Position numbers: made by a program. From assembly GCF_024223415.1 (NCBI RefSeq), contig NZ_CP100500.1: a stretch of DNA of 64,000 nt; one strand, written 5' to 3'. Origin of the DNA: Escherichia coli (GTDB lineage Bacteria > Pseudomonadota > Gammaproteobacteria > Enterobacterales > Enterobacteriaceae). Below are positions 25,301-28,300 of this stretch, piece after piece. Every line of letters begins with the position of its first letter. The first letter of the stretch is position 1.

Positions 25301-28300
25301 TCAGAAAAACAGTCCAACGTTTTAAACCAGCGCCGCGGAATTACTCCCCGACGCGCTCATTAATTGCCTGCGGATTGTACGTGATAAACATCGCATCACC
25401 GTAACTAAAAAAGCGATATTTCTCTTCTACCGCTGCTTTATAGGCGTTCATGGTGTGTTGATAACCGGCAAAGGCCGAAACCAGCATAATCAGCGTCGAC
25501 TCTGGCAAGTGGAAGTTTGTCACCAGCGCATCGACCACTTTGTACTGGAAGCCCGGATAGATAAAGATTTGGGTATCGTCAAAGAACGGTTCGATGAGAT
25601 CGTTTTTCGCCGCCTGAGCCGCGCTTTCCAGCGAACGTACTGAGGTAGTGCCAACCGCAATCACCCGGTTACCGCGCGCTTTCGCCGCCAGTACCGCGTC
25701 TACCACATCCTGCGGTACTTCAGCGTATTCCGAGTGCATGATGTGATCTTCAATGGTGTCGACGCGCACCGGCTGGAAGGTGCCCGCACCAACGTGCAGG
25801 GTGACGAACGCCATCTCCACGCCTTTGGCGCGTAATTTTTCCAGCAAAGGTTCGTCAAAATGCAGACCAGCGGTCGGGGCTGCAACCGCGCCCGGTTTTT
25901 CGCTATAAACGGTTTGATAAAGTTCGCGGTCAGCGTCTTCGTCCGGACGGTCGATATACGGCGGCAGCGGCATATGGCCGATGCTGTTGAGGATATCCAG
26001 TACCGAACGATCATCATTAAATTCGACTTCAAACAGTGCGCCGTGGCGCGCGGTCATTGTTGCGTTGATACTTTCGTCATCGCCCAGCAACAGTTCTGCG
26101 CCAGGTTTTGGCGCTTTCGAGGCGCGAATATGCGCAAGAATGCGTTTGTCGTCGAGCATCCGCTCAACCAGCACTTCAATCTTGCCGCCGCTGGCTTTAC
26201 GCCCAAACAGGCGCGCCGGGATCACGCGGGTATTATTAAAAACCAGAAGATCGCCGGGGTTGAGCTTATCGAGTAAATCGGTGAAAGTACCGTGCGTCAG
26301 CGCGCCCGTCGGCCCGTCCAGCGACAGTAAACGACAGCTACTGCGTTCAGGCATCGGATAGTGGGCAATCAGGGATTCGGGCAATTCAAAGGAGAAATCG
26401 GTAACGCGCATGACACTGACTCAGACTAAAATAAGAGGCGGGTAGTCTAGTGCCGGGGCGCTCTCCCTGCAACCTTTACCCCCCTTTGGATAGAATATAA
26501 TCGATGAATTTTTTAGCACACCTGCATTTAGCCCATCTCGCGGAAAGCTCGCTTTCCGGCAATTTACTGGCTGATTTCGTACGCGGAAATCCTGAAGAAA
26601 GTTTTCCGCCGGACGTCGTGGCTGGCATTCATATGCATCGACGTATCGACGTATTGACTGACAATCTGCCGGAAGTCCGCGAAGCACGGGAGTGGTTTCG
26701 TAGTGAAACGCGCCGCGTTGCGCCTATTACGCTGGATGTCATGTGGGATCACTTTCTTTCCCGCCACTGGTCGCAGCTGTCGCCGGACTTTCCGCTACAG
26801 GAATTTGTCTGTTATGCCCGCGAGCAAGTGATGACGATTTTGCCGGACTCACCGCCACGCTTTATCAATCTGAACAACTACTTATGGTCAGAGCAATGGC
26901 TGGTGCGCTATCGCGATATGGATTTCATCCAGAACGTGTTAAACGGCATGGCAAGCCGTCGCCCACGTCTGGATGCCCTGCGTGACTCCTGGTACGATTT
27001 AAACGCCCATTATGCCGCCCTCGAAACCCGCTTCTGGCAGTTTTATCCGCGGATGATGGCGCAGGCGTCACGCAAGGCGCTCTGAAACTTCAAGTTCCGG
27101 CGTCACTATTTTTTAGCATTCACATCCAGCGGAGCGGCATAACAACTGTAAGAAAAACATTCGCTGGAATGATTGGCGATATCTTTAAAGTTGCTTTCAG
27201 CAGCCCCCTCGAACATGAGTACCGTTCTGGACAACTCTCCGTTGTCATTTATATGTGGAAAATCAAATTGTGTACTGAATCGCCATACATCTGTCTTTTC
27301 TGGCTCGCTGTTCACAGAGATACGTCGATGGAAGACTCCTCCTGAAAACGTGCGCCAGAACAATTGTTGATCAAAATCTTGTAATATCGCACACTTGGAT
27401 GCTATTTGTTGTAGTAAACCTGCATACCGTGGACTGCCATCACGAGCAACATTATACAAACACTGACTAAAAGCATCGAACAAACAATAGATGTGATCAC
27501 TAGTGAAAAAAGGTCTTAATTTTTTTTGTTCTTCGTCGCTGTAATCCAGGAGCATCTCATTGATTTCTTCCTGTGAGAATTTTAAGACAAAATTATCTTC
27601 AGGATTTGTTTCTTTCTTGTTTTTTTCAATATTCTTCTCCTCAATGCTATTCGCATTTTGTTTCGCAATTATTTCCGAATTTTTTTTCGCAGTTTTTTCC
27701 GCAGTTTTTTTCGCAATTTCTTCTGCAATTCTTTCCCGAGTTTTAAATTTTAAACTGACACCATCGATGTCAACCGGTGTTGTTTTAAGATCTCTCTGCG
27801 CGTCTTTCAAATTTAACTCATAGAGTTTGGGCAGTTTATCTGCAGATACGTATCCGGATGAAGAAATCTGGTGTGTACGCAGGGGCGGCTGTTCACAAAG
27901 CATCGAGGTTATATCGTCTTTAAACTCTTTTACATTAAACTTCTCGGCATTAACCTTCCCTGTTATAAACCCCGCATCGGTAATTTTCTTCTCTAATTGT
28001 TTTGTACGTTTAGAATAATAAGCGTTGTTATCATAAAACTTTTCAAGAAGAGCCCACTCCTCAAGTTGCTTTATGTGATTTTTCAACTGTTGATGATCTA
28101 TTTTATATTCATGTGTACTAGAATCATTTTGGTTGCAGGAGTTACAGATTTTTAAGCATAATTTTCCATCAGATTTATTATCTATGGTATCAGTGAAAAT
28201 ATAGGACACTTCAATACTCTGCCCGTACTTATCAGTCATCTCATATGACCATTGCCCCGTTCGTTTCGCATTCTTAATGAATTCGATGGACTCTGCAGGA

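Follow-up and report, generated by a model that had tools for sequence, protein, structure and literature searches.

The Lys/Glu/Ala-rich tract of a 489-aa open reading frame (ORF) of Escherichia coli is most probably a degenerate coding minisatellite, accompanied by poly-A runs that arise as its by-product, and it would form an inter-domain linker in a weakly constrained orphan protein specific to Escherichia. On an evolutionary timescale, the region behaves as a coding VNTR that also contains ordinary frameshift hot spots, and nothing that we found marks it as a contingency locus. The ORF lies in a window of 64,000 nucleotides (the whole stretch of DNA that was analysed) from contig NZ_CP100500.1 of the assembly GCF_024223415.1. 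Alignment of the gene across carrier strains revealed both length variation and frame variation. The outcome that would have refuted the original prediction, orthologues alike in length and frame, was thus not seen. The features are listed in Table 1.

Table 1. Coordinates of the ORF, its repeat array, and the associated homopolymer runs in the window
Feature	Position	Strand	Basis
Orphan-family ORF, 489 aa	27106..28575	-	ORF listing, GC dip, site conservation
Spacer from malZ stop to ORF start, 187 nt	28576..28762	-	Sequence inspected
Degenerate 12-nt coding tandem array (24-nt higher-order)	27650..27745	-	Tandem Repeats Finder, repeat search, shuffle test
Array core, three near-identical units GCGAAAAAAACT / GCGGAAAAAACT / GCGAAAAAAAAT	27679..27714	-	Alignments
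T8 (A8 on the coding strand), natural -1 frameshift site	27680..27687	-	Alignments
T6 (A6 on the coding strand), inside the array	27693..27698	-	Alignments
T7 (A7 on the coding strand), named in the original prediction	27705..27711	-	Alignments
T7 (A7 on the coding strand), +1 site in STEC O145:H28	27620..27626	-	Alignments
T8 (A8 on the coding strand, EEQKKL), 3' of the array, internal control run	27520..27527	-	Alignments

An orphan gene at a fixed chromosomal site

The ORF carries the locus tag ECs0454 (ECs_0454) in O157:H7 Sakai; its tag in EDL933 is presumably Z0502. It stands out as a dip in the GC content along the window (~33%) and corresponds to an insertion of this one gene between acpH and malZ, two convergent core genes whose stop codons are 4 nt apart at the empty site. 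Of 5426 complete E. coli genomes, 1126, or about one-fifth, have a gene of this type at this site, and the carriers include O157:H7, O55:H7, and O145:H28. The copy of malZ in the window has a 1-nt deletion. The spacer between malZ and the ORF contains a hairpin with an 11-bp stem (about 28680-28731), which was the site of the only Rfam match in the spacer, a sub-threshold chance match. A promoter scan upstream of the ORF did not find a sigma-70 consensus on the minus strand. On the opposite strand, an ORF of 87 aa that crosses the tract (27560-27823) was discarded as a poly-T translation artefact.

Searches of the 489-aa protein against Pfam, NCBIfam, PADLOC, and PHROG gave only sub-threshold noise and no recognisable domain, and a sequence search of the PDB gave no match. 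A HMMER scan of 1.84 billion cluster representatives retrieved the family itself and its fragments, with no remote homologue, and the matches of a word-indexed search of 5.8 billion proteins were all 'hypothetical proteins' of Escherichia and Shigella. The ECs0454 family is thus, as judged from these searches, an uncharacterised orphan apparently restricted to these two genera. We found nothing relevant in the literature on ECs0454/ECs_0454, and no sign that the locus had been described or used for typing. The Ser/Asn/Ile-rich N-terminus of the protein may recall type III secretion signals. Kinship with the nearby T3SS effector EspY3 was ruled out (BLASTP E=0.89), and because genes of this type also occur in strains described as ETEC and ST69, we make no claim that the protein is an effector.

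A degenerate 12-nt array encodes a predicted helical linker

The original prediction had placed imperfect 12-bp tandem units within this ORF, at 27640-27730. The array is well supported and extends further than proposed, to about 27745. Tandem Repeats Finder described it at 27650-27734 with a period of 12, 7.1 copies, 75% matches, and a score of 79, or alternatively with a period of 24, 2.7 copies, 85% matches, and a score of 93. A separate repeat search identified six copies spaced by exactly 12 nt, the best three units being within 27684-27719. At lag 12, the identity over the whole array is 0.71, whereas dinucleotide-preserving shuffles (n=2000) gave 0.34 +/- 0.05 (z=7.4); it is 0.75 at lag 24 and 0.73 at lag 36. 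None of the shuffles matched the observed periodicity, even when we took the maximum over lags 4-30. Rfam revealed no RNA family across the tract. We set aside a reading of the array as a DNA-bending or protein-binding element because its 12-nt phasing does not fit the helical repeat of DNA.

Translated, the array reads as a repeated tetrad, [E/K][E/K][I/T/N]A, at about residues 278-309 (RIAEEIAKKTAEKTAKKNSEIIAKQNANSI...), in which the core units correspond to AKKT-AEKT-AKKN. The tract contains nine i->i+4 pairs of opposite charge, compared with 4.9 +/- 1.8 in shuffles (P=0.02). AlphaFold2 gave a pLDDT of 36 with the single sequence and of 41.6 with an alignment of the 15 sequences of the family, and since these values are so low the models were too poor to be used in fold searches. 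With the family alignment, a helix was predicted at residues 277-309 (pLDDT ~70-76); modest confidence is limited to this linker helix and to residues 331-360, and the remaining model is unreliable. Together with the composition of the tract, this low-confidence prediction suggests a charged amphipathic alpha-helix. The helix would space the N-terminal part of the protein (about residues 1-275) from the C-terminal part (about 331-489) and would grow by roughly one turn (about 6 angstroms) with each extra unit.

Such a tract resembles the ER/K single alpha-helix spacers, in that it is charged, of low complexity, predicted to be helical, placed between two regions, and enriched in i->i+4 opposite charges. 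It differs from them in that only 46% of its residues are charged and a regular stripe of I/T/N and Ala occupies tetrad positions 3-4, hence it would be amphipathic and not a classical ER/K helix. The central domain of TolA in E. coli is an example of a Lys/Glu/Ala-rich helical linker. Unlike ER/K and TolA-type linkers, the protein studied here has no sequence homology to any known protein, and the likeness comes from its composition and predicted helix.

Repeat units are gained and lost in frame

The intact alleles measure 1422, 1446, 1458, or 1470 nt, to which the protein set adds one of 1482 nt. They encode proteins of 473, 481, 485, 489, and 493 aa, with 35, 43, 47, 51, or 55 aa between the fixed anchors of the tract, and the tract is missing altogether from one divergent allele. 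All the length differences between intact alleles are multiples of 12 nt (12, 24, or 48), are in register, and are confined to the array, the only other indel being one of 2 aa near the C-terminus. The proposal that the 12-bp units change the length of the linker in frame is therefore borne out by the alleles.

The changes in copy number occurred repeatedly. Among 13 genomic alleles, in-register indels affect at least three positions, and the protein set shows at least 12 distinct tract architectures. A single background of 98-100% identity includes at least five architectures, with two gains (+AEKT and +AKKT) and three different deletions of one unit. Most unit gains and losses of the window-type allele are in the core of the array. 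There is also an allele with a 48-nt deletion, and in UTME-3 a further loss of 12 nt took place inside the already frameshifted O145 allele. The range of copy numbers is narrow, from -4 to +1 units. The array is a coding VNTR: it has units that are multiples of three within an ORF, copy-number differences that are in register, and recurrent independent events. The gains and losses probably result from replication slippage or from unequal recombination between adjacent near-identical units.

Coding VNTR and minisatellite loci serve for MLVA typing in E. coli as well as in other species. The array shares with these loci the multiple-of-3 units, the in-frame and recurrent changes in copy number, and a stability that marks clones. 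It differs from MLVA-type VNTRs in the degeneracy of its units (75% match), their small number (about 7), and the narrowness of the range given above.

Homopolymer runs carry inherited frameshifts

The homopolymers had been put forward as potential on/off frameshift sites. The two runs named, T8 at 27680-27687 and T7 at 27705-27711, are at the positions given, as confirmed by recomputation. A -1 deletion in the T8 run truncates the protein at 301 aa. The same deletion is present in O78 strain 3, GPEC1446, NCTC10444, and KV7, i.e., in four independent assemblies (from China, the USA, the UK, and Denmark) with 0-1 other differences among them. The T7 run at 27705-27711 showed no length variant in any sequence that we examined; there was also no variant of the T6 run in the alignments examined. 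The best-documented frameshift is in another run, the T7 at 27620-27626, which is 14 nt outside the interval originally proposed. There, a +1 insertion is fixed in about 24 O145:H28 genomes, giving a product of 325 aa, and it is identical in assemblies from several laboratories, years, and platforms. Both frameshifts are inherited and real. Hence, there are two pairs of ON/OFF alleles that differ only by the length of a run: A8 vs A7 at 27680-27687 in the lineage of the window, and A7 vs A8 at 27620-27626 in O145:H28.

One O145 genome, RM12275-C1, has A7 and an intact frame at the homologue of 27620-27626. It shares with three frameshifted (A8) strains a SNP in yajO that is unique among 5424 genomes, and no other indel separates it from RM8843-C1 across 40.4 kb. 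RM12275-C1 is thus either a revertant or a consensus error.

Could all the frame variation be a sequencing or assembly artefact at homopolymers, leaving the 12-nt polymorphism as the sole genuine variation? Several of the +/-1 calls made in a single genome have the appearance of long-read assembly errors. In ESDR8, this gene alone has three distinct homopolymer indels, and this error-prone assembly is the only one in which the control run at 27520-27527 varies. The singleton -1 calls in ECSC054 (A6), H9 (C6), and 17B6-2 (T6) each lack a second supporting genome, and the window itself has the 1-nt deletion in malZ. As a complete explanation, artefact is nevertheless refuted by the variants shared among assemblies, namely the +1 of O145:H28 and the -1 in the A8 run, and the otherwise indel-free comparison of RM12275-C1 with RM8843-C1 also speaks against it. 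We regard it as very improbable.

The abundance of A-runs in the gene is explained by its Lys-rich sequence and by the preference for AAA codons, which outnumber AAG by 40 to 14: there are five A-runs of at least 7 nt, compared with 3.5 expected under permutation of synonymous codons (P=0.22). The Lys AAA codons that lie within the tract or next to it create runs of A6-A8, and two of these runs bear the inherited frameshifts, which cut the protein at the linker. In the reading that we favour, the frameshifts would be ordinary indels that depend on run length and were not selected as a switch, and they would be tolerated because the gene is dispensable. Indel rates in E. coli increase exponentially with run length (PMC8510543).

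Stability within clones argues against a contingency locus

At the level of the gene, 311 genomes of O157:H7/O55:H7 share at least 99% identity; of the 17 that we sampled, 15 are 100.0% identical across all 1446 nt. Heterogeneity within the clone was not seen in these ~300 genomes, a view drawn from samples of about 60 carriers out of 1126, which may miss rare within-clone variants. The O145:H28 genomes with the +1 insertion share a single frameshift state that is stably inherited.

These observations bear on the possibility of a true contingency locus, in which the A7/A8 runs, possibly together with the 12-nt array, would be selected as hypermutable sequences for reversible, high-frequency switching or tuning within populations. 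Such a locus would fit the run-length-only ON/OFF alleles of two lineages, the intact A7 allele of RM12275-C1 nested among A8 strains, and the position of both frameshifts at the linker, where they cleanly remove the C-terminal part. In the O145 flanks, moreover, the gene has seen as many indel events as there are substitutions across 40 kb. However, the runs are only 6-8 nt long and are located at 59-72% of the ORF, i.e., mid-gene and not 5'-proximal, nor are they enriched beyond codon usage. We took as indicative of contingency an uninterrupted mononucleotide run of about 9-10 nt or more (a threshold based in part on PMC3315296), and the longest run here is A8. High mutability is a property of long SSRs, from about 10 bp upwards, and SSRs are avoided in E. 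coli as a species (PMC3315296). The O157:H7/O55:H7 genomes are essentially invariant, the O145:H28 genomes are in one state, and in RM12275-C1, whose assembly is from long reads, the lone candidate reversion consists in the loss of 1 nt from a homopolymer; consensus errors are most often of this type. A contingency locus is therefore quite unlikely. The frameshifts anticipated at the A8 run do exist, but clone stability and the shortness and mid-gene position of the runs do not support a switch, and the expectation of hypervariability between isolates is not supported, as the allele is invariant within clones.

If RM12275-C1 is real, its A8->A7 change restored the frame, as a reversible switch would, and this counts against the reading that we favour. 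One can then imagine that a real reversible switch operates at the A7/A8 run of 27620-27626, perhaps also at the A8 run of 27680-27687, and that O145:H28 thereby toggles between the full-length protein and an N-terminal fragment cut at a helix of variable length, with RM12275-C1 as a natural revertant and the 12-nt array as a second, graded layer. We consider this scenario similarly unlikely.

The SSR contingency loci of Haemophilus, Neisseria, Campylobacter, and Helicobacter also have ON/OFF alleles set by homopolymer length, to which the single candidate reversion here might be likened. The runs studied here differ from them in being 7-8 nt long, mid-gene, explained by Lys codon usage, and clonally homogeneous (~300 O157/O55 genomes). 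The closer likeness is to AT-rich accessory genes that have become frameshift pseudogenes at poly(A) tracts, where a lineage-fixed +/-1 in an A7 or A8 run truncates a dispensable, horizontally acquired gene of low GC content. We see no material difference from these and adopt this reading for the homopolymers.

The gene is under weak constraint

The dN/dS ratio is 0.63 for the gene, 1.19 for the tract, about 0.5-0.6 for the flanking parts, and 0.03 for the adjacent acpH. The amino-acid divergence of the gene is 10 times that of acpH, despite a lower dS. Around 7% of the sampled carriers have a frameshifted or truncated gene, and the length classes represent roughly 15%, 33%, 48%, and 3% of them; both sets of values are estimates from evenly spaced samples of ~60 carriers among the 1126. 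The dN/dS values and the share of disrupted genes indicate that the gene is weakly constrained.

The ratio of ~1.2 in the tract and the many length alleles could also reflect diversifying selection, which is a second point against the favoured reading. Linker length would then be adaptive, either because spacing matters or because the helix offers an antigenic or target-binding surface, in ways that vary by host or niche. The contrast in dN/dS between the tract and its flanks, the coexistence of five length classes and a tract-less allele at appreciable frequency, and the divergence relative to acpH would all be compatible with this. Yet a dN/dS near 1 over 55 low-complexity codons is indistinguishable from neutrality, and the weak constraint extends to the whole gene, which successful lineages, O145:H28 among them, tolerate as a pseudogene. 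In addition, the length classes follow the allele backgrounds, with no recurrent match to host or source. We thus consider diversifying selection unlikely. Under the minisatellite reading, tract length would be nearly neutral, and its alleles would drift and mark lineages.

Implications for typing and for the ECs0454 family

Short poly-A runs in AT-rich accessory genes call for caution, as they yield both real, lineage-fixed pseudogenes and artefacts of long-read assembly; only the variants common to independent assemblies are trustworthy. With at least five length classes, a frameshift specific to O145:H28, a tract-less allele, and a fixed chromosomal site, the gene provides a new compact marker of length and frame, albeit of modest value. 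If the reversion in RM12275-C1 were true and frequent, the locus would stand out as an SSR switch in E. coli, where SSR-based phase variation is rare. Proteins of the ECs0454 family tolerate linkers of 0-55 residues, and even truncation, which argues for a gene that is dispensable or only weakly selected.

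A low-GC orphan gene at a single chromosomal site

The repeats lie in an ORF (hereafter the orphan gene) whose GC content is ~31-39%, against 50-58% in its flanks, within the chromosomal gene order tgt-queA-acpH-[orphan ORF]-malZ-proY. Its counterpart in Sakai (O157:H7), ECs_0454, is annotated as "hypothetical protein". The gene is found at the identical site in 1126 of 5426 complete E. coli genomes. In genomes lacking it, the stop codons of acpH and malZ are 4 nt apart, and the gene is thus a discrete 1.66-kb low-GC insertion. One genome has two places matching the orphan-gene probe, the maximum per genome in the E. 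coli collection, which may represent a duplicated or split copy.

We found no significant match to the protein in Pfam, NCBIfam, PADLOC or PHROG, no relative in the PDB, and no mention of the locus tag ECs_0454 in a literature search. The matches of a word-indexed search of 5.8 billion proteins were confined to Escherichia/Shigella, and a scan of 1.84 billion cluster representatives returned only the family's own full-length cluster and fragments. The gene is probably dispensable and Escherichia-specific, and the constraint on it is weak among intact alleles: dN/dS is 0.63 overall, ~0.5-0.6 in both parts flanking the repeat tract and 1.19 in the tract, with 0.03 in the adjoining acpH. Relative to acpH (26504-27085), synonymous divergence is lower in the orphan gene (dS 0.055-0.069 vs 0.133), but non-synonymous divergence is ten-fold higher (dN 0.035-0.046 vs 0.0036), as would fit a gene that is younger, under weak constraint and spreading through recombination.

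The neighbourhood has other peculiarities. A 1-nt deletion at ~29773 (Sakai CACGGGGGGAGCTTG, window CACGGGGGGGCTTG) splits malZ into two overlapping minus-strand ORFs (28763-29686 and 29650-30579), reflecting either a real pseudogene in the strain or a consensus error of the source assembly. In the 187 nt separating malZ from the orphan gene, a stem of 11 bp (CAGCCCTGACA...TGTCAGGGCTG) forms a strong hairpin at 28680-28731, perhaps a terminator for malZ or a REP-like element; in Rfam it matches nothing beyond a sub-threshold chance hit. A second low-GC accessory gene, a plus-strand 478-aa ORF (12570-14006), lies between yajO and pgpA, an interval in which O145 genomes have an annotated 520-aa T3SS effector, EspY3, relative to which the window ORF may be shorter or truncated. 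EspY3, ~13 kb from the orphan gene, was considered as a relative of the orphan protein and is unrelated to it.

Coordinates of the orphan gene and of the T-runs in its repeat region
Feature	Coordinates	Strand	Remark
Orphan gene	27106-28575	minus	ORF of 489 aa
T8	27680-27687	plus	T-run; coordinates recomputed
T7	27705-27711	plus	T-run; coordinates recomputed
T6	27693-27698	plus	T-run; coordinates recomputed

A period-12 array encodes a charged, probably helical linker

The original prediction described 12-nt repeats with runs of eight and seven T on the plus strand, and all of these were found. Tandem Repeats Finder delimits a period-12 array at 27650-27734 (7.1 copies, 75% matches, score 79), with an alternative period-24 reading at 85% matches, and a repeat search finds six copies spaced at exactly 12 nt. 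The lag-12 identity of the array is 0.71, compared with 0.34 +/- 0.05 in dinucleotide-preserving shuffles (z=7.4); it was reached by none of 2000 shuffles, nor by any of 1000 when the best lag between 4 and 30 was taken.

In coding orientation, each unit follows the pattern GCN-AAA/GAA-AAA/GAA-ACT/ATT, and the array translates as RIAEEI-AKKT-AEKT-AKKN-SEII-AKQN-ANSI-EEKN-IEKN-KKET, with strict tetrad positions (E/K, E/K, I/T/N, A) and 46% charged residues. Opposite-charge pairs at i->i+4 number 9, against 4.9 +/- 1.8 in shuffles (P=0.02). AlphaFold2 models of the protein are unconvincing overall (pLDDT 36 and 41.6 in two models), moderate confidence being reached only at a continuous helix, 277-309 (pLDDT ~70-76), and at residues 331-360. 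From these features we infer that the array probably encodes a charged amphipathic helix spacing the N-terminal from the C-terminal part of the protein.

The array is a recurrent in-frame indel hot spot

In a coding-strand alignment of 13 genomic alleles, 12-nt indels occur at three different array positions; an allele of 473 aa is missing four units (48 nt). In 118 family proteins, the distance between the anchors DGVSL and DNFVLKF is 55, 51, 47, 43 or 35 aa, always in four-aa steps, with at least 12 distinct tract architectures. The window-type background, 98-100% identical elsewhere, includes two different one-unit gains (+AEKT and +AKKT) and three different one-unit losses. Most events fall within the best-matching core (27679-27714); outside the array, intact alleles are free of indels, apart from one protein that differs by 2 aa at its C-terminal end. 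In-frame indels thus genuinely recur in the array, making it a hot spot, and the predicted change of linker length by 12-bp units is borne out between lineages. Sampling the 1126 carriers at even intervals gives rough estimates of 15% with the 489-aa form, 33% with the 485-aa form, 48% with the 481-aa form and 3% with a tract-less form.

The 13 alleles include a divergent one of 461 aa without the repeat tract (strain AHM21C2872I, L011:955-2340; ~31 of the 1126 carriers). Unrelated-looking sequence replaces its central segment (~residues 262-345) between ends that are both ~92% identical, a pattern suggesting that its linker region arose as a mosaic or by recombination. Strain TR01 (NZ_CP033605.1), labelled O157:H7, has a window-type 489-aa allele (99.5% identity), unlike the other O157:H7/O55:H7 genomes, which share a 481-aa allele; either TR01 is an atypical lineage or its locus was replaced by recombination.

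Frameshifts in ordinary homopolymers

All +/-1 differences found in the gene fall in homopolymers (plus-strand T-runs being A-runs on the coding strand). Five A-runs in the gene reach 7 nt or more, against 3.5 expected when synonymous codons are permuted with the protein fixed (P=0.22), and its Lys codons are AAA:AAG = 40:14. The count does not significantly exceed expectation, and the runs therefore follow from the Lys-rich sequence and the AAA preference.

Two frameshifts are certainly real. An identical -1 in T8, giving a 301-aa product, occurs in O78 strain 3 (China), GPEC1446 (USA), NCTC10444 and KV7 (Denmark), whose alleles have just 1-2 further base differences from that of the window. 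A +1 in a T7 at 27620-27626, 14 nt beyond the interval originally pointed out, gives a 325-aa product in ~24 O145:H28 genomes, which several laboratories sequenced on several platforms; UTME-3 combines it with an additional -12 in the array. Singleton off-frame variants (A6 in ECSC054, C6 in H9, T6 in O157 17B6-2) are inseparable from long-read consensus errors, because ESDR8 (L021:297-1765) alone has three homopolymer indels in the gene (in A7 at position 100 and in A8 at position 1050, plus the +1 of the O145 type). Off-frame or truncated carriers amount to about 7% in two independent 60-genome samples. O55:H7 USDA5905 (L023:3001-4741) has lost the first three-quarters (5') of the gene together with the 3' end of malZ to a deletion, so that two partial pseudogenes abut there.

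A slow lineage marker

The homopolymers had been proposed as on/off frameshift sites. The four T8 genomes confirm one of them as a site of frameshift, but the locus gives no indication of hypervariable phase variation. The O157:H7/O55:H7 allele is near-invariant across 311 genomes at >=99% identity (in a sample including O55:H7 strains, 15 of 17 were identical over all 1446 nt), and the O145 frameshift is inherited stably; the suggested hypervariability between isolates is thus not supported. The runs are 6-8 nt long, mid-gene and not enriched. Indel rates in E. coli climb exponentially with run length (PMC8510543), and these runs fall short of the strongly mutable class of long simple sequence repeats, about 10 bp or more, in a species that avoids such repeats (PMC3315296).

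The one observation in favour of switching is RM12275-C1 (O145), which has A7 at the homologue of 27620-27626 and an intact ORF, where RM8843-C1, RM8988-C1 and RM8995-C1 have A8. These four genomes differ by three substitutions and this run over 40.4 kb around the locus. RM12275-C1 is nested among the frameshifted strains because it shares with the three a derived G in yajO, found in only these four among 5424 genomes. Its intact frame reflects either a true reversion or a 1-nt homopolymer under-call; the absence of any other indel relative to RM8843-C1 in 40 kb mildly favours a real A8->A7 change.

The original prediction is partly supported: length and frame do differ between lineages, and this variation behaves as a slowly evolving lineage marker. 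At least five unit changes among ~60 window-type protein variants, otherwise differing by single substitutions, put the indel rate of the array core, very roughly, at tens of times the per-base substitution rate. By estimate, this is still orders of magnitude below the rates of contingency loci. The locus is a coding VNTR for a variable-length, probably helical linker, and ordinary poly-A hot spots for frameshifts flank it.
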